Source of the DNA: Acidobacteriota bacterium
Lineage (GTDB): Bacteria > Acidobacteriota > Terriglobia > 20CM-2-55-15
Assembly (NCBI GenBank): GCA_023265365.1
Contig: JAHFTY010000001.1
Span: 3,656 to 67,655 of the forward strand
Direction: 5' to 3'
DNA: 64,000 nucleotides
Shown: positions 3,038 to 64,000 of the stretch, one piece after another
Numbering within the stretch: position 1 is the first letter of the stretch
How the letters are laid out: each line of letters begins with the position of its first letter
The notes under the pieces: generated by a model
Seen by the model: only the letters and a program-made list of their open reading frames with translations
What the model was told of the DNA's origin: nothing
Database searches by the model: none
Translations under genes and position numbers: made by a program

Positions 3038-5491
3038 TCAGTTGCCTGCGGTGGCGTCCTGAAGCAACTGATTGAGCTTTTCGACATCCACCGGCTTCAT
3101 CACGAGCGGCAGCGAATAATCTTCGGCAAATTGCCGGATTTCGTCACTCATGGTGTCGCCGCTGATCACAATCGTCTTTACCGAGACCGGCGGAATCATC
3201 GCCTGAATCCGTTTGACGATGCTCTTCCCGTCCATCTCCGGCAGGTGCATGTCCAGCAGCAGCACATCGAATTTGTTCTTGGAAAGCAGCTGCAGGGCGC
3301 GGCTTCCGGTCGTGGTGCACTCCACGTGGTGTCCCATCCTGCCGAGGGAATTCTCGAGGATGTTGAGGATCTCGGGTTCATCGTCGACCGCCAGAATGCG
3401 GAGAACGGCGGCGGTTCGCAACTTCGGCGGTGAAAGGTAGGGCGCGATCGGCACGAGGGGAAACTCGATTTCGAAACGTGTGAAGGTCTCGCCGTCGCTC
3501 TCGACCTGGATCCTGCCGTCATGGTCGACGATGATCGAGTGAACAATCGACAGGCCGAGCCCGGTGCCCTGGCCCACATCCTTCGTGCTGAAGAACGGGT
3601 CGAAGATGCGGTCGCGATTCTCTCTGAGGATGCCGACGCCGTTGTCCGAAACCTCAATACGAATCCGTCCGTCGCGAATCTTCCGGCCATGGATCACGAT
3701 CAGCCCCCGCGATCTTTTCGCCTGGCGAATGGCGTCGCGCGCGTTGTCGATGAGGTTGAGAAAGATTTCCTGCAGCAAGGTGTATCTCCCCATCATTGTC
3801 AGGGAGGACGGCAGGTCGAGGTCGGTCGCAATGTTGTAGGTGGCGAGTTCCGTGGCTTTCAAATGCTCGACGGACCGGATCACGTCGACGAGATCCACGA
3901 ACGTCTTGTCCGATTCCCCCGGCCTGCTGAGCGTCAGGAAGGTGTGGACGATGTCCCGGGCCCGCTCTGCTGCGGAAGCAATGGCGGCAACCTGGCGGCG
4001 GCCCTCGAAAGTCAGACCGGAATAGTCGCGCAGCAGTTGAGCATTGCCCAGCACGATGGCGAGCGGGTTGTTGAGTTCGTGTGCGGTTCCCGCAATCATC
4101 CGTCCCAATGCGGCCATCCGTTCGGTCTGGATCAACTGCTGCTGGCGCTTCCGCTCTGTGGTGATGTCCACGAGAAGCTCGACGCCGCCCTTGCTGTCCT
4201 TTCCGGCGGTGATCGGCGCGAACTCAAGCTGATAGTTCAGATCCCGAATCTCCACCGCCGCCGAAAATGGTCTTTGTGCTTTGAGTTCACACCAGTCGCA
4301 CGGAATGTTCCGGCCGAAAACAACGCTATAACAGGGGCCGGTCGATGCGTTGAAGCGGCTGCGGAACACGTCGTTGCTGAGAACGACGTTGTAGTCACCA
4401 TCGACAATATAGATCGGCTGGCGCAGGGAACTGAGGGTCACGTCGAGCTGGGTCCGGCGATACTCGGATTCCTCGACGACGATCCGGTGCCGGAAGTGCA
4501 GCAGAGCCGTGAGCATCACGACTTCTCCGAGCGTGAGCCACCTTCGAACGTCCTGCAGGTCCTGCTGTCCGGTGACGAGGAGCGCGGAAACCAGATGAAA
4601 GGCAGTGATCGCGGCGATCAGTGTCAGGGAAAAGCCGTACCGGGATGGAATCAGGACCGCGTCGATGGGCTGCACCCTCCGGGCCGGGGCGGAAGCCACC
4701 GCAAGCGACATGACCCAGAAGGCCGCGCACCAGAAGGGATCGTTGTAAGGCATCCCGAAGATCAGGAACGACATCGAGGCCGCTGTATAGAGTGTCAAAC
4801 CCGTCGCGATCAAACGGTACGTTTTCCCCCATCCGGAACTTCGGGCTTCCCAGGCCACCACCGCCGCAGTCGCCGCAATGCCGGTATTCAGCATGACGTT
4901 CGCGACTGAGCTATAGAAAGTTCCCGCAACCTGCAGATGAACGATCGACGGGAGAATGAAAAAATAGCCGATGTAGTAGCCGATGATGCTCAGCGCAACG
5001 CTCGTATCGATGAGGTGCAGCCGGCGATTCAACTCCGATCCGGCATAAAACGGCCGGTAGAGGATGGCGCCCAGAATCAGAAGCTTGAACATCCAGTACG
5101 CCGTGTCCTGCACCGCGGATAGCGGAAAGCCGTAGACCCGAATGGCGATCCACAGAACCTGACCCAATCCCCAGAACGTATGGGCCAGAGCGAGGGCCTG
5201 CCAGAACCGTGAGTTCAGAAGTCCTTTGCGCCACACGAAGAACGCCGGCAACACCGCAATGGCCAGCATTCCGAAATTTCGGACGAGTGGGCTTAACGGT
5301 TTGATGACAAAACCGAGAAGGTACAAGGCGAGATAGGTAACGTAGACGAAGTGAATCTTTCGGTTCACGCGGGAATTTATATCCCAAATGGAACTAGGGA
5401 TCGAATAGAATCCGCCGTTTATGGCATCCAGGCGCGAGCCTTTGATCTTTGCCCTGACGGTCTCCGGTGCGGCGGCGCTGTTGGTTTCCAT
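3038..5491 (-). CDS. Hybrid sensor histidine kinase/response regulator (membrane N-terminus, PAS-like, HisKA, HATPase, C-terminal receiver)
   Basis: H-box AHELNNPLA, ATPase G-boxes, and a C-terminal receiver with DDE..D..K pattern (ILAVDDEPE...LLLDMHLP). The annotated 5' end overlaps the divergent ligase gene by ~70 bp, so the true start may be internal (for example GTG near 5368). Confidence 0.8.
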   Translation of the reverse strand: METNSAAAPETVRAKIKGSRLDAINGGFYSIPSSIWDINSRVNRKIHFVYVTYLALYLLGFVIKPLSPLVRNFGMLAIAVLPAFFVWRKGLLNSRFWQALALAHTFWGLGQVLWIAIRVYGFPLSAVQDTAYWMFKLLILGAILYRPFYAGSELNRRLHLIDTSVALSIIGYYIGYFFILPSIVHLQVAGTFYSSVANVMLNTGIAATAAVVAWEARSSGWGKTYRLIATGLTLYTAASMSFLIFGMPYNDPFWCAAFWVMSLAVASAPARRVQPIDAVLIPSRYGFSLTLIAAITAFHLVSALLVTGQQDLQDVRRWLTLGEVVMLTALLHFRHRIVVEESEYRRTQLDVTLSSLRQPIYIVDGDYNVVLSNDVFRSRFNASTGPCYSVVFGRNIPCDWCELKAQRPFSAAVEIRDLNYQLEFAPITAGKDSKGGVELLVDITTERKRQQQLIQTERMAALGRMIAGTAHELNNPLAIVLGNAQLLRDYSGLTFEGRRQVAAIASAAERARDIVHTFLTLSRPGESDKTFVDLVDVIRSVEHLKATELATYNIATDLDLPSSLTMMGRYTLLQEIFLNLIDNARDAIRQAKRSRGLIVIHGRKIRDGRIRIEVSDNGVGILRENRDRIFDPFFSTKDVGQGTGLGLSIVHSIIVDHDGRIQVESDGETFTRFEIEFPLVPIAPYLSPPKLRTAAVLRILAVDDEPEILNILENSLGRMGHHVECTTTGSRALQLLSKNKFDVLLLDMHLPEMDGKSIVKRIQAMIPPVSVKTIVISGDTMSDEIRQFAEDYSLPLVMKPVDVEKLNQLLQDATAGN

Positions 5492-12653: not shown

Positions 12654-12842
12654 ATGGCGCAGCGCTGCGAAATATGTAACAAAGGTCCCGTTTATGGTAA
12701 CCGGGTGAGCCACGCTCACAACCTGACCCGACGTCGCTGGAACCCCAATCTTCAGCAGGTTCGCGTCATTGAAGGCAAAACCCACAAAAGGATGCGCGTT
12801 TGCACCAACTGCATCCGTTCCGGCCGGATCACCAAAGCCTGA
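12654..12842 (+). CDS. rpmB: 50S ribosomal protein L28 (zinc-ribbon C+ form)
   Basis: The sequence MAQRCEICNKGPVYGNRVSHAHNLTRRRWNPNLQ... is the L28 signature, with CxxC...CxxC. A GAGGAG RBS sits 7 nt upstream. Confidence 0.85.
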   Translation: MAQRCEICNKGPVYGNRVSHAHNLTRRRWNPNLQQVRVIEGKTHKRMRVCTNCIRSGRITKA

Positions 12843-57564: not shown

Positions 57565-58614
57565 TTGACCTCCATGCACATCAGTGATTTCGATTACCCG
57601 TTACCTCCCGAACTGATCGCGAGGGAGCCGGCACGACCGCGCGACTCTTCACGGATGATGCTCGTCGACCGAACAGCTGGTGCGTTCGTCGACTCGACGT
57701 TCAGGAGTCTTCCCAATGTTCTGCACCCCGGCGACGTGCTCGTCATTAATGATACGCGTGTGATGCGCGCCAGGATGTACGGAGTGCTCGAGAGGAGGAC
57801 GGGAACGACGCGGCCGATCGAGGTTCTGTTTGCGAATCCCGTGACTTCAACCACGTGGGAAGTGCTGTGCAAACCGGGGAAGCGGGTCCGGCCCGGCGAT
57901 CGAGTGGTTTTCGGAGAGGGCGTCTCAATCGGGACCTTCGGCGACACCCGCGAACACGGATTGAAATTGTTGACCGTGACGGGAACATCATCTGTAACGG
58001 AATTACTTCAACGCTTCGGACATCTCCCGCTGCCTCCTTATATGGAGCGTCCCGCGCGAGACTCCGATGCGATCGCGTATCAAACGATGTTCGCTGAACA
58101 TTCCGGAGCGGTGGCGGCGCCGACCGCAGGATTGCATTTCACACCCGAAGTGATAGAGGCTCTGGCAAGTCGCGGTATCGATGCAGTCGGCATCACACTT
58201 CACGTTGGCATTGGAACCTTCCTGCCGGTTCGAACCGAGGATCCTCGCGAGCATTGGCTGAAGCCGGAATGGTTCAATATCCCCGAGGTCACCGCAGAAC
58301 GGCTGAATTCCGCGAAAGAAACAGGCAATCGGATCATCGCAGTGGGTACGACTTCAACCAGGACGCTTGAGGACGTCTTCAGCAAACACGGACGTTTTCA
58401 CCACGGCTCGGGCTATGCCGGAATGTACATTTTGCCGGGCCACCGGTTTCAAGCGATCGACGGCCTGCTGACGAATTTCCATCTGCCGCGCTCGACGCTG
58501 CTCATGCTTGTCTCGTCGTTCGCCGGCAGGGAGTTGACACTTCGCGCTTACGCTCATGCTGTGGAGAAGAAATACCGGTTCTACAGCTACGGCGACTGCA
58601 TGCTGGTTCTCTAG
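57565..58614 (+). CDS. queA: S-adenosylmethionine:tRNA ribosyltransferase-isomerase
   Basis: QueA conserved blocks (DFDYPLPPELIA, GTTSTRTLE, YRFYSYGDCML). Confidence 0.9.
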   Translation: MTSMHISDFDYPLPPELIAREPARPRDSSRMMLVDRTAGAFVDSTFRSLPNVLHPGDVLVINDTRVMRARMYGVLERRTGTTRPIEVLFANPVTSTTWEVLCKPGKRVRPGDRVVFGEGVSIGTFGDTREHGLKLLTVTGTSSVTELLQRFGHLPLPPYMERPARDSDAIAYQTMFAEHSGAVAAPTAGLHFTPEVIEALASRGIDAVGITLHVGIGTFLPVRTEDPREHWLKPEWFNIPEVTAERLNSAKETGNRIIAVGTTSTRTLEDVFSKHGRFHHGSGYAGMYILPGHRFQAIDGLLTNFHLPRSTLLMLVSSFAGRELTLRAYAHAVEKKYRFYSYGDCMLVL

Positions 58615-58729
58615 AATTGACGCGGGTTTCGGAGAAATGCGGACGTTGGATTTCTTGTAATCACCGGGCCTTGGAAGCTCGATCTTATGCAACTCACTGC
58701 TGTTCGCGGATTTAGGCCCTGCACTTAAG

Positions 58730-58757
58730 TTGACTCCCTGACGGTTTTCGGTATAAT
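58730..58757 (+). promoter_or_regulatory. Sigma-70 promoter of csp (TTGACT-16-TATAAT)
   Basis: A near-consensus hexamer pair. The resulting ~90-nt 5' UTR is typical of cold-shock genes. Confidence 0.6.
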
Positions 58758-58852
58758 GCCCGCCGGTCTAAACTTCGTGGCTTCTTGTAGTTGCGTACCG
58801 ACCTGCTGCGAAGTTCAGGCGGGAAGAGTATCAAGTAAAGGAGTTTCGGGTA

Positions 58853-59062
58853 ATGAGCAAAGAGACGGGCAAAGTAAAATGGTTCAACAACAAAAAAGGA
58901 TTCGGGTTCATTGAGAGGGCTTCAGGCGGCGATGTTTTTGTCCATTATTCGGCAATTGTCAGTGATGGATATAAGACCCTGAAAGAGGGGGACAGTGTTG
59001 AGTTCACGATCACGCAGGGACCGAAAGGGTTCCAGGCGGAAAACGTCGAGAAACTCGCGTAA
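58853..59062 (+). CDS. cspA: Cold-shock protein (CspA family)
   Basis: [15 protein letters not shown] and VFVHYSAI are the RNP1/RNP2 motifs. AGGAG RBS. Confidence 0.9.
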
Positions 59063-59071
59063 AGATTCCAG

Positions 59072-59110
59072 GACCCTGCGGCCGCCTGACTCGCAGGGTC
59101 TTGATGTCTT
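59072..59110 (+). terminator. Putative intrinsic terminator of csp
   Basis: A 9-bp stem gaccctgcg/cgcagggtc with an 11-nt loop, followed by ttgatgtctt. Confidence 0.45.
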
Positions 59111-59119
59111 CGGTAAGTA

Positions 59120-61483
59120 ATGAAGACGAACGGCCCAGCCACACAGTCTCTTCGAACGGACCTCGAATTCTCATCGCAGCGACACCTCGGCAAAAACTAC
59201 ATCGTCGTCAAGGACCCGATCACCAAGCGCTATTTCCGTTTTACTGAAAACCAGAACGTGATTATCGATCTGCTGCGAGCGGAAAATGACCTCTCCGTGT
59301 TGGCCGCTCGCGCTTCCGAAAGGCTTGGAGGGTCGATCTCCATCAACACCGTTCAGGCCTTTCTTCAGTCTCTCGAAGGGAAGCTGCTGCTGGACACGGA
59401 AGCGGTTCGCGAAAAGCTGGCCGATCTGAAAAGCAAGAAACTCGAGGATCGAAATCTCCTTTACTGGAAACTCGCCTCGATTAACCCGGAGCGCGTTTTC
59501 GCCTGGCTTGTGCCTCGCACCAGATGGGCCTTCAGCCGATGGTTTCATGTTCTTGCATGCATACTGATCGTCTCCGGTTTTACGCTGAACTACATTCACC
59601 TAAGAGAACTGACCGTCGACGTTCAGGATCTGTTCAATTTGAATGGGCTGCTACTGGTGTGGCTCGTCACGATGATGGTCGTGACGCTCCATGAGTTCGC
59701 TCACGGACTGACCTGCTGCCATTTTGGAGGAAAGGTGCAGGAGATCGGCTTCATGCTGATCTATTTCCAACCCGCTTTTTACTGCGACGTGAGCGATTCG
59801 TGGATGTTCCCGCCCAAGAAACAGCGAATGCTCGTTACCTTTGCGGGCGGATATTTCCAGTTGTCGATTTGGGGTCTGTGCACGGTCCTATGGCGTATCA
59901 CCGCTCCGGACGCGTTCGTCAACCAGCTTGCTCTGGTCGTCATTGTCTTTGCGGGTGTCCAAACATTGGTGAACTTCAACCCGCTGATCAAACTCGACGG
60001 TTATTACATGCTAAGCGATTACCTGGAAATCCCCAACCTTCGGTCCAAGGCTGTTCATTCGATCTGGGATCGATTTACCGGACGCGGCCGGCCAATACCG
60101 TCTCGCGAGAGGCGGCCACTGATGATCTACGGACTCGCCTCGATCGCGTTTTCGACAACTTTGCTCATGTATGTTTATTCCGCTCTGTATACTTGGGCCA
60201 CTTCCCAGTATGCTTTTGCCGGCTTAGTTGGTTTCGTCATGTTCTCAACGTACACGCTTCGCAGGACGGCGGTGGAATCCATTTCCGGTATCCGGGCAGC
60301 AGTCACTCACGCTTCGTTTCGCAGGTACAGAAACGCGGCAATCCTTATCGCCGCCATCATCGTCGCCTACATCGGACATTGGGAACTCAAGATCCCCGCC
60401 GAATTCAAAGTGATCCCACGAAGCGAGATGACTGTGAGACCGGAGACCGGCGGAATCATCGTTGAGCTGATGGTCCACGAAGGAAGCCGTGTCGCGAAAG
60501 GTGAAGTTCTGGCCCGTCTCCGGGATTTCGAAAAGCAAAAAAAAGTGTCCGAAGTGAATGGCGAGCTTGAACAGAAAATGAGCGGGCTGGCCCTGCTTCG
60601 CGCCGGTGCCCGTCGCGAAGAAATCGATCGAAAACAAAAGCTGGTGGACACCAAACAGGTCGAACTCGCCAATTCGCGGCGGAATCAGGAACAGCGCAAC
60701 CAGCTCGGACAAAGCCTTGAGCGAAAGAAGTCCGAACTGCAACTGGATCAACAGATATTGGCCAGAGCGCACGAACTGTTCGCCGGCGGCTTGATTCCCC
60801 GAGCCGAACTGGAACGGTCGCAGACCGCGGTTACCGTGCGTGAGCGCGAAATCGGCGAAATCGAAGCGGCCATCCGTGTGGTCTCCGAGACCGGAGATCG
60901 CGAGTCGGATTTGAAATACCGGGAACTGGCGGAAGCCGAAAGTGAATTGCGCCTCATGCAGGCGGGCAGCCGGCCCGAACAGATCCGCGAAGCCGAGGCG
61001 GAGGTAAGGAAATTGCAGGAGCAGGCTCGAATTCTCAACTCGGAACTCGAAAAAACTGACATTCGTGCGCCCATCGACGGAGTGGTCAGCACACCGTTTG
61101 TCGAAAGAAAACTCAATCAAAGTCTGGCCGCTGGCGACGAGCTGTGCAAGATCGTCGACACCAGCCGGGTAACAATCGAAATGCTGGTGCCGGAAAAGGA
61201 GCTGGCAGACGTCCGCGCAGGAAACCATATCTCAATGAAACTCCGGAGCTTCCCATCGCTCGATGTTCAGGGCCGCGTCGATTTCATTGCGCCCGTCGCC
61301 CAGACGATCAACGGCCAACAGATGGTCGTCGTCCGAAGCGAGATTCCGAATGAGCAGATGACGTTGAAACCGGACATGACCGGTGTCGCCAAGATCTTTG
61401 CAGGCGATCGCCGAATCATCGATCTTTTCTCGAGACGTTTCATACGTTGGATTCGCACCGAATTCTGGGATCTCCTGCCTTAA
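59120..61483 (+). CDS. Fusion protein: PqqD-like peptide-recognition (RRE) domain + S2P/M50-family intramembrane zinc metalloprotease + HlyD-type periplasmic adaptor
   Basis: The region aa ~25-95 (YIVVKDPITKRYFRFTENQNVIIDLL...VQAFLQSLEGKLLL) resembles PqqD/RRE. A TM block carries HEFAHGLTCCHFGG (HExxH) and NFNPLIKLDGYYM (the NxxPxxxLDG S2P motif). The C-terminal ~330 aa has the HlyD pattern: a TM anchor, beta-strand, long coiled coil (EQRNQLGQSLERKKSELQL...), then IRAPIDGVVS... Confidence 0.6.
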   Translation: MKTNGPATQSLRTDLEFSSQRHLGKNYIVVKDPITKRYFRFTENQNVIIDLLRAENDLSVLAARASERLGGSISINTVQAFLQSLEGKLLLDTEAVREKLADLKSKKLEDRNLLYWKLASINPERVFAWLVPRTRWAFSRWFHVLACILIVSGFTLNYIHLRELTVDVQDLFNLNGLLLVWLVTMMVVTLHEFAHGLTCCHFGGKVQEIGFMLIYFQPAFYCDVSDSWMFPPKKQRMLVTFAGGYFQLSIWGLCTVLWRITAPDAFVNQLALVVIVFAGVQTLVNFNPLIKLDGYYMLSDYLEIPNLRSKAVHSIWDRFTGRGRPIPSRERRPLMIYGLASIAFSTTLLMYVYSALYTWATSQYAFAGLVGFVMFSTYTLRRTAVESISGIRAAVTHASFRRYRNAAILIAAIIVAYIGHWELKIPAEFKVIPRSEMTVRPETGGIIVELMVHEGSRVAKGEVLARLRDFEKQKKVSEVNGELEQKMSGLALLRAGARREEIDRKQKLVDTKQVELANSRRNQEQRNQLGQSLERKKSELQLDQQILARAHELFAGGLIPRAELERSQTAVTVREREIGEIEAAIRVVSETGDRESDLKYRELAEAESELRLMQAGSRPEQIREAEAEVRKLQEQARILNSELEKTDIRAPIDGVVSTPFVERKLNQSLAAGDELCKIVDTSRVTIEMLVPEKELADVRAGNHISMKLRSFPSLDVQGRVDFIAPVAQTINGQQMVVVRSEIPNEQMTLKPDMTGVAKIFAGDRRIIDLFSRRFIRWIRTEFWDLLP

Positions 61484-61838
61484 AGGACTGCCGTCCTACC
61501 ACAAGAGCATAATTCTTGCGAAAGTTTCGGTATTTTTATTCCAGTTTTTCCGCTCTTTAGCTGTGACAAGCGGAAACTGAATTTCCTTTGCACAGGGCAA
61601 ACCCGTCGAAAGGCGGGGACGCAAAGCTTCGAGACTACCGTCCCACGAATAAAAAGATCATGGATTATTCGTGTCGACCACGTCGGTCGGGCCGCCACAG
61701 CGCGTGAGCTTTGGAGCCGTCTTGTTTTCCACTGTTTCGCAAACCCGGAATCGGGCACTCGTCCGACGTGTGAATTCGGGTCTAAACGTCGCTCAATCGT
61801 CGAAAACGTTTTGTTCTAATCCGTCCCTGGAGGAAAAC

Positions 61839-61940
61839 ATGATCGAGAAAGATGCCGCACTTTTGCTGGATATCGTCGAAGTCGAAGAACTTGAACTGAA
61901 AATCGCGCCGGACAGCGGTTCCGTGCCGATAATCGAGTAG
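61839..61940 (+). CDS. Candidate small peptide gene (33 aa, MIEKDAALLLDIVEVEELELKIAPDSGSVPIIE)
   Basis: A GGAGG RBS sits 5 nt upstream of the ATG. A hairpin plus T-rich tract follows the TAG within ~15 nt. The peptide is acidic and helix-prone, with no Cys. A longer GTG-initiated form (61671) lacks an RBS. Confidence 0.35.
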   Translation: MIEKDAALLLDIVEVEELELKIAPDSGSVPIIE

Positions 61941-61952
61941 ATACTCTCGGAG

Positions 61953-61996
61953 TGAGAGGGGCGAACTTCCCATCGTCCCTCTCATTGTTTGTCTCC
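61953..61996 (+). terminator. Putative intrinsic terminator after the small peptide ORF
   Basis: Stem tgagaggg/ccctctca with a loop, then ttgtttgtctcc. Confidence 0.4.
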
Positions 61997-62021: not shown

Positions 62022-64000
62022 ATGAGATTTAGCCAGCTATCGCGTTCGTGCCGGCTCTATCTGGTTGCCGTGTATCTACTCGGCATACCCTTTGCCGCGC
62101 TCTGTTTTTTTCCCGCCGGAAGTTACACCGCACTCTGGATTCTGTTGACCCTGACATCCGCGTTTGTCGCAACGATTAACGTTCGATTGCCGAAGATTTC
62201 TTCAGTCATCTCGATGGGAGACGTCTTCATCATATTGGCCCTCACTCGATTCGGGCCGGGACCGGCATTAGTCACCTACTGGGTGGACATCTTCGCCGCC
62301 CACCTGGTGGACGTTGTGCGCAAAACGGGACTGCGCGGCCTCGCAAAGGTCATGTGGTACCGTTTCGTGTTCAACCTCGCCTGCTGCGCGATTTCCGTTT
62401 GGATCATGTGGAAAGCTTACGGACTGGGCATGGCTGCGGAATTTGGTTCTCCGGCCAATCAAGTGCTGGCTCTTGGCGGAGTCGCGCTCGCCTGGTTCCT
62501 GGCCAACACGCTGACCGTCTCCATGGCGATCTCATTCTGGTCGAATCAGAAGTTTGCAGTCGTGTGGCGCGAAGGCGTCGGCCTTTATCTGCTCAATTTC
62601 TTCGGGTCGGCCGCGGCCGCCGGGTTGATTTCTCTCTTCTACGAAAGAGCCGGCTTCTTTGTGATGTTGCTCTCACTGCCGATCGCCGTGGTGCTGTACC
62701 AGCTCTACCTTTTCAACTTTCAGAAGTACGAACAGGCCCAGAAGCATATTCACGATCTGAACACGCTTTACCTGGAGACCATCGAAGTGATGGCCAGCGT
62801 AGTTGACGCGAAGGATCCATACACGCACGGTCATATCCGGCGTGTGCAGGTGTACTCGGTATGTCTTGCGGAGTGCCTCGGTATCACGGACGAAAACCAT
62901 TTGATGGCGATTCGGGCCGGCGCATTGCTACACGACATTGGGAAAATTGCGATACCCGAATACATTCTGAACAAGCCGACGGTGCTCACCGCGAACGAAT
63001 ACGAGAAAATGAAAATACATCCCGTCGTGGGCGCGAACATGTTGAAGGGCATCCATTTTCCTTTTCCGGTCGAGCCCTTGGTGAAGTCCCATCATGAGCG
63101 GTGGGACGGCAAAGGATACCCCGAAGGGCTTAGCGGCGAAGCGATCCCCATCAGCGCGCGCATCCTTTCGGTTGCCGATTGCTATGACGCCCTTACCACA
63201 AATCGTCCCTATCGATCGCCGATGCCGCACGAACAGTTGGTTCAGTTCTTCCAGCGTGAGGCCGGCCGTGCATACGACCCTTCCGTGATCGATGCTCTAA
63301 TCAAGAATCTGGACACGCTTCAGGCGAGGGTCGCGGGGGCTCACATTCCCACGACCAGTGTCTGGGACATCGACGATGCGAGCGCGAACTCCGGAAAGGA
63401 GACGATGCGTCCGCTGGAGCATGTTCAGCCAACGCGAACTTACGACCAGGCGCTGAGGGGAAGTCCTGAAGTCCAACGCGAGCTTTATTCTGTTTTCGAA
63501 TTCGCTCGCGCTGAAAGCTACTGTCTTTCGGAACGAGACGTCCTCTTCTTCATGGGAGCAAAGCTCGAAGCGCTGGTACGTTTTGATGCCGCCGTTTTCT
63601 ATCTTGCGGACGACGAAAGCAGCACCCTGACGGCAAAACATGTAATTGGCAGCGCACAGGAAGGCCTCGTGAAGCGCTCCTTGAAACTCGATCAAAAGCT
63701 CAGCGGCTGGGTGGCGGTGAATAACCAATCGTTGTCCAATCTGCCTCCATTTCCCGACTTTCTTTCCCATCCTGAACCCAAGCCTAACTTTGAAAACTCC
63801 TGCATCGTCCCCCTGAATAAGGAGGGCGTCGTTCTCGGTACTCTCTCGCTCTATCGAAAAGAGAAAATTCCCTTCGCGGAAGAAGAATTCCGGCGGCTCG
63901 AAATCGTCGCGTCGCAAACCAGCCTGGCACTCCATCGCGTCCGCGAGACGTCCGGCGACGAAGAGTTTTTGGTCGATACGACAACAGGCGTGGCGAACGG
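62022..64000 (+). CDS. Membrane-anchored HD-GYP phosphodiesterase with C-terminal GAF domain; partial (runs off window end)
   Basis: The frame is open from ATG 62022 to the window end, so it is absent from the ORF track. It has ~6-7 N-terminal TM helices. The HD domain carries HGHIRRV...LLHDIGK...HHERWDGKGYP (HD-GYP signature). A GAF-like region follows. Confidence 0.8.
   Translation, partial: MRFSQLSRSCRLYLVAVYLLGIPFAALCFFPAGSYTALWILLTLTSAFVATINVRLPKISSVISMGDVFIILALTRFGPGPALVTYWVDIFAAHLVDVVRKTGLRGLAKVMWYRFVFNLACCAISVWIMWKAYGLGMAAEFGSPANQVLALGGVALAWFLANTLTVSMAISFWSNQKFAVVWREGVGLYLLNFFGSAAAAGLISLFYERAGFFVMLLSLPIAVVLYQLYLFNFQKYEQAQKHIHDLNTLYLETIEVMASVVDAKDPYTHGHIRRVQVYSVCLAECLGITDENHLMAIRAGALLHDIGKIAIPEYILNKPTVLTANEYEKMKIHPVVGANMLKGIHFPFPVEPLVKSHHERWDGKGYPEGLSGEAIPISARILSVADCYDALTTNRPYRSPMPHEQLVQFFQREAGRAYDPSVIDALIKNLDTLQARVAGAHIPTTSVWDIDDASANSGKETMRPLEHVQPTRTYDQALRGSPEVQRELYSVFEFARAESYCLSERDVLFFMGAKLEALVRFDAAVFYLADDESSTLTAKHVIGSAQEGLVKRSLKLDQKLSGWVAVNNQSLSNLPPFPDFLSHPEPKPNFENSCIVPLNKEGVVLGTLSLYRKEKIPFAEEEFRRLEIVASQTSLALHRVRETSGDEEFLVDTTTGVAN

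Follow-up and report, generated by a model that had tools for sequence, protein, structure and literature searches.

An RRE, site-2 protease and HlyD-type adaptor fusion encoded beside a conserved leader-peptide gene in an Acidobacteriota bacterium

Several Gram-positive pheromones, including SHP/XIP and cAD1, are encoded by small ORFs and have their active part in the C-terminal 7-9 residues, which are freed by a protease of the site-2-protease (S2P) family (Eep/RseP). Recognition of these substrates involves no RRE, a separate ABC transporter (PptAB) exports them, and the hosts have no outer membrane. An RRE-dependent intramembrane S2P is known from daptide biosynthesis: MpaP cleaves the leader ELExMEAP after its proline (PMC10028931). 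The daptide leader motif, ELEx..AP, occupies positions -8 to -1, and daptide clusters are found almost entirely in Actinomycetota and Bacillota, with one of 483 biosynthetic gene clusters in Pseudomonadota (PMC10028931). Proteins that combine M50 and HlyD regions were noted in 2015 in a SecA_DEAD-associated, type-I-secretion-like module; they were suggested to stand in for the ABC membrane component of the secretion system and in some cases have OEP genes beside them (Kamneva et al. 2015, PMC4452313).

We analyzed a gene in which an RRE, an S2P core and a HlyD-type adaptor are joined. It lies in a 64,000-nucleotide stretch of contig JAHFTY010000001.1 (the window; coordinates count from its first letter) at 59120..61483 on the plus strand, has an ATG start and encodes 787 aa, as established from the ORF list and domain matches. 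An initial annotation, made from the letters alone, had given exactly this ORF and length, and the three-module architecture that it proposed is borne out by domain matches and structure comparison. Its claim of novelty stands in part: we found no description of the three-domain fusion in the literature, nor of the fusion together with the peptide family described below, but the RRE-S2P pairing (PMC10028931) and the M50/HlyD pairing (PMC4452313) were already published.

The exact protein of the window has no record on public contigs, and homologues stood in for it in our comparisons. We found 1,556 homologues at E<=1e-5, of which the best 120 are nearly all full-span, and relatives occur in at least 593 species genomes from more than 10 phyla; in relatives from many phyla, the tblastn matches run from about residue 11 to residue 783. 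Because of these two counts, we reject a chance origin of the ORF. The architecture thus spans many phyla and is not limited to Acidobacteriota, a point absent from the initial annotation, as are the leader motif of the neighboring tiny ORF and the c-di-GMP riboswitch before it (see below). The N-terminal part of the protein is related to 11,142 cluster representatives. Among the top 150 of these, 96 are at least 650 aa long, i.e., fused, and the fusion is the common form in that set. Current labels of the relatives are efflux adaptor, "putative peptide zinc metalloprotease" or hypothetical, and source names of homologues include "multidrug efflux pump subunit AcrA".

The N-terminal domain, residues 16-87 (59165..59380, plus strand), is an RRE, a PqqD-like winged helix that we predict to be cytoplasmic. 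Its AlphaFold2 model (pLDDT 83.9, pTM 0.72) forms an antiparallel sheet of three strands (E16-22, E25-32 and E37-41) and then three helices (H43-54, H58-69 and H75-87). All of the top ten Foldseek matches are RiPP RRE-containing proteins, and the domain is structurally similar to solved RRE domains, in agreement with the RRE-like N-terminus read from the sequence initially. Pfam PqqD (PF05402), a match to which had been anticipated along with it, hit neither the complete sequence (E<=1) nor the first 127 residues searched separately (E<=10), and a PDB sequence profile of this domain gave only weak MarR-type winged-helix matches. The span of the tblastn matches shows that the RRE is kept in relatives from many phyla. 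Its fold, together with the co-located conserved leader, leads us to infer that it binds that leader.

The S2P (M50-like) membrane core covers residues ~123-380 (59486..60259, plus strand) and contains six hydrophobic segments, as delimited by NCBIfam, Pfam, and hydropathy and positive-inside analysis. NCBIfam model NF041824, daptide_HExxH (MpaP family), matches residues 26-378 (E 9.4e-69), across the RRE and the S2P core together, with a score of 232.3 bits that lies below the equivalog cutoff of 300. The YydH/LiaK model NF058609 matches at E 6.7e-13. Both Pfam models named in the initial annotation stay below their gathering scores (Peptidase_M50, PF02163, 24.2 bits versus 27.2; PF13398, 16.5 bits versus 26). 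M50/S2P membership therefore rests on the NCBIfam matches and the motifs. A PDB profile of the whole protein returned adaptors only, without any S2P.

By alignment, the zinc-binding and catalytic motif HEFAH (H191, E192 and H195; 59690..59704, plus strand) lies in the second hydrophobic segment, within residues 171-200, and the motif NFNPLIKLDG (N285 to D293, and G294; 59972..60001, plus strand) holds the Asp that is the third zinc ligand. Residues H191, E192, H195, N285, N287, P288, D293 and G294 are invariant in an alignment of 27 homologues with 50-74% identity. HExxH is present in all 114 full-length homologues and N.NPL.KLDG in 111 of them, and each of the 96 fused cluster representatives has the HEFAH motif. 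With the motifs invariant and the NCBIfam matches in hand, the S2P core with HEFAH(G) and NxxPxxxLDG that had been read from the sequence is confirmed; loss of HExxH/LDG conservation, which the initial annotation had counted as an argument against it, is not what the homologues show. The AlphaFold2 model is unreliable near the LDG motif (pLDDT <50, residues 286-307).

A seventh hydrophobic segment (residues ~405-425, with a hydropathy peak at 407-425; 60332..60394, plus strand) would carry the chain into the periplasm. Because the loop before it carries many K/R residues (5), we assign an N-in/C-out topology at this segment, and hydropathy and positive-inside analysis predict the RRE inside and the adaptor outside. 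The remainder (60395..61480, plus strand) is a HlyD/EmrA/MacA-type periplasmic adaptor with a lipoyl-like domain, an alpha-hairpin (residues ~470-644) and a beta-barrel, recognized by Pfam, NCBIfam and Foldseek. HlyD_D23 (E 6e-23; 81.7 bits, cutoff 30), HlyD_3 (E 2e-17; 64.3 bits, cutoff 22.2) and TIGR01730 (114.7 bits, cutoff 94.9) all exceed their cutoffs, as expected from the full HlyD membrane-fusion domain described initially, and Biotin_lipoyl_2 is also matched in this part. Foldseek matched the adaptor to EmrA (E 6.9e-19) and MacA, and the PDB profile search to EmrA (E 2.9e-20), as well as LipC and HlyD. An R549-x3-L553-x6-P560 motif is located at the hairpin tip. Judged from these matches and models, the adaptor is complete and EmrA/MacA-like.

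Downstream of the fusion is a precursor peptide gene of 33 aa (61839..61940, plus strand), with GGAGG 6 nt 5' of its ATG. It is called, without a name, in the public collection. In relatives of the peptide the leader, here MIEKDAALLLDIVEVEELELKIAP (61839-61910, plus strand), is conserved and the tail is variable. Cleavage is predicted between MIEKDAALLLDIVEVEELELKIAP and a predicted core of 9 residues, DSGSVPIIE (61911-61937, plus strand), for which we calculate a monoisotopic mass of 915.45 Da. We found 115 distinct peptides with an EELExKIAP-like leader adjoining relatives of the fusion. Across 78 genome loci, 63 of 63 leader-HMM matches lie on the same strand as the fusion gene and at most 3 kb from it, and 618 kb of flank contained none beyond 3 kb; ten further leader peptides were recovered by regex. 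Gene contexts unrelated to small peptides had been named in the initial annotation as evidence against its reading; many of the contexts that we see have a conserved small peptide ORF next to the fusion. In metagenomes, 41 of 79 loci have a leader peptide, and many of the rest are cut near the gene end. About 40% of genome loci are without a recognizable peptide, many being short contigs, which counts against a cleavage and export reading.

The leader EELExKIAP resembles the daptide leader ELExMEAP: E-L-E-L-K-I-A-P shares five of the seven specified positions (E, L, E, A and P), with a hydrophobic and a charged residue exchanged between positions -4 and -3. The tail has a hydrophilic, acidic character that sets it apart from the classical transmembrane substrates of S2Ps, and this too counts against cleavage and export. 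We reason from the sequences that the 33-aa neighbor very probably encodes a peptide that the fusion cuts, and that the fusion may help to export it. For Planctomycetes we also weighed large secreted proteins whose N-terminus has LExLExR as candidate substrates, and rejected them, as only small peptides were found.

Between the two genes lies a c-di-GMP-I-type riboswitch aptamer (61587..61700, plus strand). Its best Rfam model is RF03167 (c-di-GMP-I-GGC), matched over the full model length (1-80) at 59.3 bits, a narrow margin above the gathering score of 59 (E 1.8e-12), and the aptamer belongs by score to Rfam clan CL00126 (c-di-GMP-I). RF01051 and RF03167 aptamers also occur in relatives, in many cases as a tandem pair, and the RF01051 scores there are 47-80 bits (cutoff 35). 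One or two c-di-GMP-I aptamers occur at the same place in 6 of 6 loci, and in 14 of 19 loci of relatives. We found no report in the literature of c-di-GMP-I riboswitches controlling a leader-type precursor peptide gene. A weak hairpin and U-rich run (61689..61730, plus strand; z = +1.0) overlaps the 3' end of the aptamer and is a possible expression platform (terminator); the equivalent hairpin at locus L003 of a relative is a clear terminator whose 5' arm is shared with the aptamer (z = -2.75). On the 3' side of the peptide gene, a fold of 14 pairs with a T-rich tail (61951..61986, plus strand) is terminator-like, and is suggestive only, because the region as a whole has no more terminator-like sites than shuffled sequence would give. 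We did not accept a cspA-thermoregulator Rfam match 5' of csp (26 bits versus a cutoff of 78), and we dropped a sigma-54 promoter 5' of the peptide gene, whose -24/-12 spacing was unfit by eye.

The window ends within a gene for a membrane-anchored protein with HD-GYP and GAF domains (62022..64000, plus strand; HD_5 E 3.4e-38, GAF_2 E 5e-10), whose homologues run on into GGDEF. A NosR-type c-di-GMP phosphodiesterase model matches it at E 4.8e-39, below cutoff. The same neighbor, with GGDEF, is found at L001, L003 and L005, making it a conserved neighbor and a candidate link to c-di-GMP.

The neighbors listed initially, queA, csp, the tiny ORF and the HD-GYP gene, are all confirmed. So is the statement that the fusion gene has neither an ABC transporter nor an outer-membrane factor as a neighbor: ABC signatures of the LSGG type come no closer than about 31.5 kb and 2.6 kb in window coordinates, and TolC-like queries gave no tblastn match anywhere in the window (a weak BLAST test), where no second HlyD gene turned up either. 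Across relatives the conserved neighbors are clpB, hsp20, queA, csp, HD-GYP/GGDEF, a kinase with a sigma-54 activator and, on the opposite strand, a PUA-domain methyltransferase. A TolC-type OEP gene adjoins the fusion in some relatives (three loci). The conserved neighborhood contains no ATPase or known transporter, so the energy source for translocation is not evident, which counts against export. A recurrent 345-aa downstream protein in other phyla (cluster c9) had no NCBIfam or Pfam match. A gene of ~430 aa between the fusion and the peptide in some relatives looks by eye like an IS256-family transposase insertion, and we do not consider it a component of the system.

We favor, as the more probable function though with clear reservations, a maturation protease that depends on a leader peptide and has its membrane core joined to a periplasmic export adaptor. 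The initial annotation had imagined a device that recognizes a peptide, cleaves it and passes it to an export conduit; the three modules and a conserved precursor neighbor have been found, and cleavage and the hand-over to export are what we infer. This reading gains weight because the adjacent tiny ORF is a conserved precursor with a daptide-like leader. The product of the 33-aa neighbor would be made in the cytoplasm, its transcription gated by the c-di-GMP-type riboswitch in presumed response to the ligand. The cytoplasmic RRE would bind the leader ..VEELELKIAP, and the S2P core would cut after the conserved Pro, a site suggested by analogy to MpaP, to free the nine-residue tail. The HlyD-type domain would probably oligomerize like EmrA/MacA and dock on a TolC-type channel encoded elsewhere, and in this way would take the peptide past the periplasm and the outer membrane with no ABC transporter of its own encoded nearby. 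Cleavage and export by one protein has a precedent in the M50 protease EpeP, which is thought to do both (PMC10885120). More speculatively, what emerges would most likely be an extracellular peptide, short and without modifications, and possibly a signal tied to c-di-GMP signaling. Peptide export through the fused adaptor is a supposition on our part; the adaptor could instead aid oligomerization or partner an unlinked pump.

A wider proposal is more tentative, and we doubt that all of its parts hold jointly. The RRE-S2P-adaptor fusion would be a widespread, unrecognized peptide secretion and maturation machine of diderms, one that needs no ABC transporter of its own and to which substrates are directed by a short ELExRIAP-type leader. 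In Terriglobia, synthesis of hypervariable peptides of 6-13 residues would be switched by c-di-GMP riboswitches, and the peptides would be sensed by the membrane HD-GYP/GGDEF enzyme or the kinase with a sigma-54 activator, forming a cell-cell loop coupled to c-di-GMP.

We weighed several other explanations. The characterized adaptors EmrA, MacA, HlyD and LipC, which are also the closest structural matches, all need an inner-membrane transporter, and the locus shows nothing that would power transport. The RRE-S2P part might therefore mature the peptide while the HlyD part works in the conventional way, as the adaptor between TolC and an ABC, MFS or RND pump encoded elsewhere; that pump would supply the energy, and the fusion would tether the protease. 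SecA_DEAD ATPases do accompany M50/HlyD proteins in a related module (PMC4452313), but a weak regex search of 86 loci found no SecA-like ATPase beside the fusion. Moreover, no transporter gene or cluster recurs there in these 86 loci from many phyla, and the fusion itself brings seven membrane segments at the adaptor base, and we regard an unlinked pump as unlikely. The alternative offered in the initial annotation was a regulated-intramembrane-proteolysis relay, in which the S2P cleaves a membrane-anchored regulator (e.g., an anti-sigma factor), much as RseP and SpoIVFB do, and the small ORF is there by coincidence. Such relays are the best-known role of S2Ps, and genes for signaling proteins (HD-GYP/GGDEF, Ser/Thr kinase with sigma-54 activator, hybrid histidine kinases) are found repeatedly in the vicinity. 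However, a Pfam search of the fusion protein found no PDZ or CBS domain, no sigma/anti-sigma pair occurs in conserved synteny and no anti-sigma gene is a neighbor. The N-terminal domain is an RRE, a fold that binds peptide leaders, and in many phyla peptides with the matching leader are encoded very close by and in the same orientation. We see no support for such a relay and consider it very improbable.

The daptide protease model is the best family match, and the leader resembles ELExMEAP, as if the locus were a daptide-type RiPP cluster in which enzymes encoded elsewhere turn the C-terminus of the precursor into an amine. Yet the match falls short of the equivalog cutoff, the peptide of the window ends in Glu rather than the invariant Thr (1 of 57 short tails ends in Thr), and no NCBIfam precursor model matched ten leader peptides. 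The conserved neighborhood also has no gene for an aminotransferase, alcohol dehydrogenase, MpaB-like protein or MpaM-like methyltransferase, and we hold a daptide pathway to be highly improbable. Finally, the public naming of many homologues as AcrA or efflux RND adaptor and the sub-threshold Pfam M50 match would suit an ordinary efflux adaptor with a degenerate, inactive M50 relic. We give this next to no credence, as HExxH and the LDG Asp are invariant in homologues down to ~35% identity and relatives from many phyla retain the RRE.

If the leader-dependent protease and adaptor mechanism holds, one protein would recognize, cut and export a ribosomal peptide across two membranes, with the 33-aa neighbor as a testable substrate. 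The RRE-S2P leader-peptidase logic of daptides would then reach into diderm phyla and cover peptides that seem to be unmodified, and the riboswitch would tie a secreted peptide to c-di-GMP signaling, an unusual regulatory link. The annotation gap is large, with the partner peptides of the 11,142 related cluster representatives carrying no names, and the conserved leader provides a simple genome-mining handle for the peptide family. The system is also a possible way into the peptide signaling of Acidobacteriota, which are little studied and hard to grow.

MpaP is like the fusion in having an N-terminal RRE joined to an S2P core, with homology over both parts, and differs in that its model, of 379 positions, has no HlyD domain. 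Daptide clusters encode MpaB/C/D/M enzymes and ABC transporters, whereas the conserved neighborhood here is without those enzymes, and daptide precursors are hydrophobic with an invariant C-terminal Thr, in contrast to the 9-residue acidic tail ending in Glu. EpeP/YydH/LiaK (NF058609) are likewise M50 intramembrane proteases that remove a RiPP leader (PMC10885120), but they have no RRE or HlyD fusion, their substrate is modified by a radical-SAM epimerase, and they come from Bacillota, in operons that also encode an ABC transporter. The module of Kamneva et al., which we liken by description, shares weak M50 similarity, HlyD and an overlapping set of phyla (Planctomycetes, Verrucomicrobia, Nitrospirae and Proteobacteria). 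It differs in its secondary SecA_DEAD ATPase, GAF-HlyD protein and second HlyD protein, and its description includes no RRE, substrate peptide or riboswitch (PMC4452313). Among c-di-GMP-I (GEMM-I) riboswitches of clan CL00126, the aptamer at 61587-61700 is typical in reaching the RF03167 gathering score and different in its putative target, a precursor peptide gene. Relative to type I secretion (HlyB-HlyD-TolC), the fusion locus has no adjacent ABC gene, and the peptide leader ends in AP, not GG. The adaptors EmrA, MacA, HlyD and LipC share the lipoyl-like domain, long alpha-hairpin and beta-barrel after a membrane anchor, but each stands as a protein of its own and depends on an ABC, MFS or RND partner; in the fusion, which has no linked transporter, the membrane part of the same chain is instead a protease.

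The evidence largely supports the following reading of the locus: a periplasmic adaptor is fused to an MpaP-like leader peptidase that is guided by an RRE, the cognate 33-aa precursor adjoins this fusion, and a c-di-GMP riboswitch lies ahead of the precursor. The fusion gene runs from 59120 to 61483 on the + strand, starts with ATG and encodes 787 aa, exactly as the initial annotation gave it. Its HlyD-type adaptor, the C-terminal third, was unambiguous in the domain search (HlyD_D23, E 6e-23; HlyD_3, E 2e-17; TIGR01730; all over cutoff). A full-length AlphaFold2 model (pLDDT 75.5) resembles EmrA (E 6.9e-19) and MacA, and a PDB sequence profile recovered EmrA, MacA, LipC and HlyD. The Pfam searches proposed for the other two modules returned a sub-threshold M50 score for the middle part (24.2 bits, threshold 27.2) and no PqqD match for the N-terminus. 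The NCBIfam daptide intramembrane metalloprotease model covers residues 26-378 (E 9.4e-69; 232 bits, below the equivalog cutoff of 300), and the YydH/LiaK epipeptide protease model matched at E 6.7e-13. Both catalytic signatures claimed for the site-2 protease (S2P) core are conserved: H191, E192, H195 and N285..D293-G294 are invariant in an alignment of 27 homologues (50-74% identity), HExxH occurs in 114/114 and the LDG motif in 111/114 full-length homologue matches, and all 96 fused cluster representatives carry HExxH. A separate model of the N-terminal domain (pLDDT 83.9, pTM 0.72) predicts three strands followed by three helices, and Foldseek concurs with the identity of this domain as an RRE; the three-module description was correct, including this domain that the HMMs miss. 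Hydropathy and the positive-inside rule predict seven membrane segments, with the RRE cytoplasmic and the adaptor periplasmic.

The neighbors listed in the initial annotation are all present: queA (57565..58614; Queuosine_synth, E 4.6e-121) and the cold-shock gene csp (58853..59062; CSD, E 3.4e-29) upstream, and a small ORF and a gene for a membrane HD-GYP/GAF protein (starting at 62022 and extending past the window end; HD_5, E 3.4e-38) downstream. No ABC transporter or outer-membrane factor adjoins the fusion in the window, as had been noted; ABC signatures occur only near 31.5 kb and 2.6 kb, and TolC-like queries gave no match in the window. Close relatives (51-74% identity) keep a constant gene order: clpB, hsp20, methyltransferase, queA, csp, fusion, small ORF, HD-GYP/GAF/GGDEF, and Ser/Thr kinase with sigma-54 activator. 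The stretch 58730-58757, upstream of csp, strongly resembles a sigma-70 promoter (TTGACT-16 nt-TATAAT, 11/12); a match to the cspA thermoregulator RNA over the same region (58691-59106) scored 26 bits against a threshold of 78 and was rejected. In six relatives (loci L001, L002, L003, L004, L005 and L006) the gene next upstream of the fusion is csp, so the two genes may be co-transcribed.

The small ORF (61839..61940, + strand, 33 aa) is kept as a protein among close relatives, with a conserved leader and a variable C-terminal tail. The window peptide has the leader MIEKDAALLLDIVEVEELELKIAP and the tail DSGSVPIIE (61911-61937); the corresponding pairs are ..IEELEGKIAP and DGGAVPIL in L001, ..VEELEQKIAP and SGQLTWDD in L003, and ..VEELEIKVAP and SNWWLPF in L005. 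Counted back from Pro (-1), the leader E-L-E-x-K-I-A-P has positions -8, -7, -6, -2 and -1 in common with the daptide motif ELExMEAP, which the RRE-dependent intramembrane S2P MpaP cleaves after Pro (PMC10028931). By analogy, we infer that cleavage would fall after Pro24 and set free a 9-residue tail of 915.45 Da. No NCBIfam model covers the leader peptides, which are nameless or called 'hypothetical protein' in public sources.

When each species was represented by one genome, at least 593 of the genomes scanned encoded a relative of the fusion. The best 80 came from Acidobacteriota, Verrucomicrobiota, Gemmatimonadota, Planctomycetota (including the cultured Adhaeretor mobilis), Zixibacteria, Ignavibacteria, Rokubacteria, Nitrospirae, Betaproteobacteria, Bacteroidota and others, and nearly all of these matched the whole fusion (residues ~11-783). 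When 1.84 billion cluster representatives were searched with residues 1-400 (E<=1e-3), 11,142 matched; among the best 150, 96 were fused (>=650 aa) and 23 stand-alone (~400 aa). Homologues of this widespread protein are named efflux adaptors, 'putative peptide zinc metalloprotease protein' or hypothetical proteins in public sources. Of 78 genome loci, 36 have small ORFs that match a profile of the leader. The 63 matches are all co-oriented with the fusion gene and at most 3 kb from it, 50 being no more than 1 kb away; the flank beyond 3 kb, 618 kb in total, contains none. Ten further loci with a peptide came from a looser pattern, and 41 of 79 metagenome loci had one, many of the rest ending near the fusion gene. 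The initial annotation had proposed looking beside homologues for a conserved small ORF, and many relatives do carry a conserved leader peptide there.

The 115 distinct leader peptides comprise 57 with short tails (6-13 residues), mostly from Terriglobia and Zixibacteria, and 58 with long, G/N/S/P-rich tails (17-116 residues), often encoded by 2-6 genes in tandem. Long-tail peptides from outside the Terriglobia (L015 9697/12627/12827, L024 3936-5026, L025 9290-9767, L026 598-3184, L033 7524-8059, L067 9272-9735, L078 8761-9318) carry the same leader type, ..L.[LIV]EELE[QE]RIAP, often from arrays of 2-7 genes, and several tail types recur across phyla (GNPGNNNPPxNNTNNPGNEGTGGxVSTGG; DSVNGVPGESNGNxGNEVSNG.KPQPGS; repeated GYEGQPGNQGG). 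In the Zixibacteria locus L084 (12729-14091), six tandem genes of 22-27 residues lie immediately 3' of the fusion, of the form MNYELKVEHLEARIAP followed by SRWGAD; other tails in this array are SRYGAE, SKYGIG and SKYGSSR. Identical or near-identical leaders can bear differing tails, such as DESGALPITLD and DESVSVPIIE (L132/L154 versus L133; L143 versus L155). Tails of the window's type, ..SVPIIE, also occur next to fusion proteins that share only ~50% identity with that of the window. This pattern of tail exchange looks pherotype-like.

Alignment of upstream DNA revealed a conserved block 5' of the peptide genes. In the window it contains a c-di-GMP-I-type aptamer (61587..61700, + strand; Rfam RF03167 best, 59.3 bits versus a gathering score of 59, E 1.8e-12), and one or two aptamers lie between fusion and peptide gene in 6/6 and 14/19 loci tested. 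Most close relatives have two in tandem (L003 12454-12552 and 12606-12713; L011 12481-12576 and 12641-12747; also L001, L007, L009, L089, L092, L103, L104, L108, L110, L114, L146 and L162). The window retains the second only: aligned to L001, its closest relative, it shows a clean gap of ~145 nt that takes out the first. In L003, the 5' arm of a strong terminator is also part of the aptamer, which suggests an ON switch in which ligand binding blocks termination; the window counterpart of this hairpin is weak. A terminator-like hairpin (61951..61986) lies 3' of the peptide gene, ahead of the HD-GYP gene. Given the aptamer, peptide synthesis appears to be tied to c-di-GMP, which the product of the following gene appears to make or break.

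At 45 related loci, a conserved mini-ORF of 7-10 codons lies between riboswitch and precursor gene (L001 12855-12887, L003 ~12770-12802, L087 ~4530-4562 and 42 more). It has the orientation of the fusion gene at every locus, is repeated 2-4 times in tandem at some, and varies in synonymous codons. Its product, M..(Y/F)(G/A)VIW(V/I)-stop (e.g., MKETYGVIWV), could be a second product, or the mini-ORF a regulatory upstream ORF. At some loci its sequence forms the in-frame precursor N-terminus (MKENYGVIWTE..IEELE.KIAP), and one precursor tail in L007 ends in ..YSVIWI. The window holds a degenerate remnant (~61755-61790) that has lost the start region and gained 3 nt.

Other recurring neighbors of fusion relatives are PAS hybrid histidine kinases, a TPR protein, a thioredoxin-like protein, an Omp85 protein and ~1000-aa proteins with TPR-rich regions, kinase-like by eye. 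Eight loci (L070 12334-13371, L035, L038, L040, L049, L073, L076 and L081; Verrucomicrobiota, Eisenbacteria, Nitrospirae and Chitinophagales, not the window) encode, directly 3' of the fusion gene and on the same strand, a ~345-aa protein without a Pfam or NCBIfam match, which may have an accessory or modifying role in these lineages. A ~430-aa gene, IS256-family transposase-like by eye, lies beside the fusion in L013 (12332-13618) and L014 (13036-14280) and inside the fusion gene in L030 (8624-9916).

We propose that the cytoplasmic RRE would bind the leader, that the S2P would cut the precursor after Pro24, and that the adaptor, as a homo-oligomeric tube, would conduct the tail to a TolC-type channel. 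The architecture, conserved catalytic motifs, predicted topology, co-located leader peptides and riboswitch are the observed parts of this mechanism, and binding, cleavage and export its inferred steps. The recognize-cleave-export interpretation of the initial annotation is largely supported. Adaptors use an RLS motif for contact with TolC, and the R549-x3-L553-x6-P560 motif at the alpha-hairpin tip of the fusion adaptor resembles it, which offers a lead. Export is supported by EmrA, MacA and HlyD being the closest matches of the adaptor, by a TolC-type outer-membrane efflux gene (Pfam OEP, E 7.4e-25) adjoining the fusion in a few relatives (L071 12418-14607, from A. mobilis; L057; L081), and by the M50 protease EpeP, which is thought to perform both cleavage and export (PMC10885120). 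The main weakness of the export reading is that no energy source for transport is visible; hence, its strongest rival is transport by an unlinked pump. A role for the tails in signaling is speculative; it is suggested by their short, hypervariable sequences, by the riboswitch, and by the sensors that recur nearby (hybrid histidine kinases, Ser/Thr kinases and HD-GYP/GGDEF proteins).

No paper on the three-domain fusion or its peptides came up in full-text searches. The combination of Peptidase_M50 and HlyD led to Kamneva et al. (2015), who described a module in which secondary SecA_DEAD ATPases accompany HlyD-domain proteins that weakly resemble M50, and proposed that these proteins make up the membrane portion of a type-I-like secretion system (PMC4452313). 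Their account reports no RRE or substrates, and a regex search of 86 fusion loci, a weak test, found no SecA-like neighbor. The fusion is not a type I secretion system, as no ABC exporter adjoins it. The alternative raised in the initial annotation, a regulated-intramembrane-proteolysis relay of the RseP/SpoIVFB type, found no support: the fusion lacks a PDZ or CBS domain, and its conserved neighborhood contains no pair of sigma factor genes. Nor is the fusion an MpaP equivalog, as its score is below the cutoff, its precursor lacks a C-terminal Thr, and no daptide enzymes are nearby. It is best described as MpaP-like, an RRE-guided leader peptidase that would work as MpaP does.
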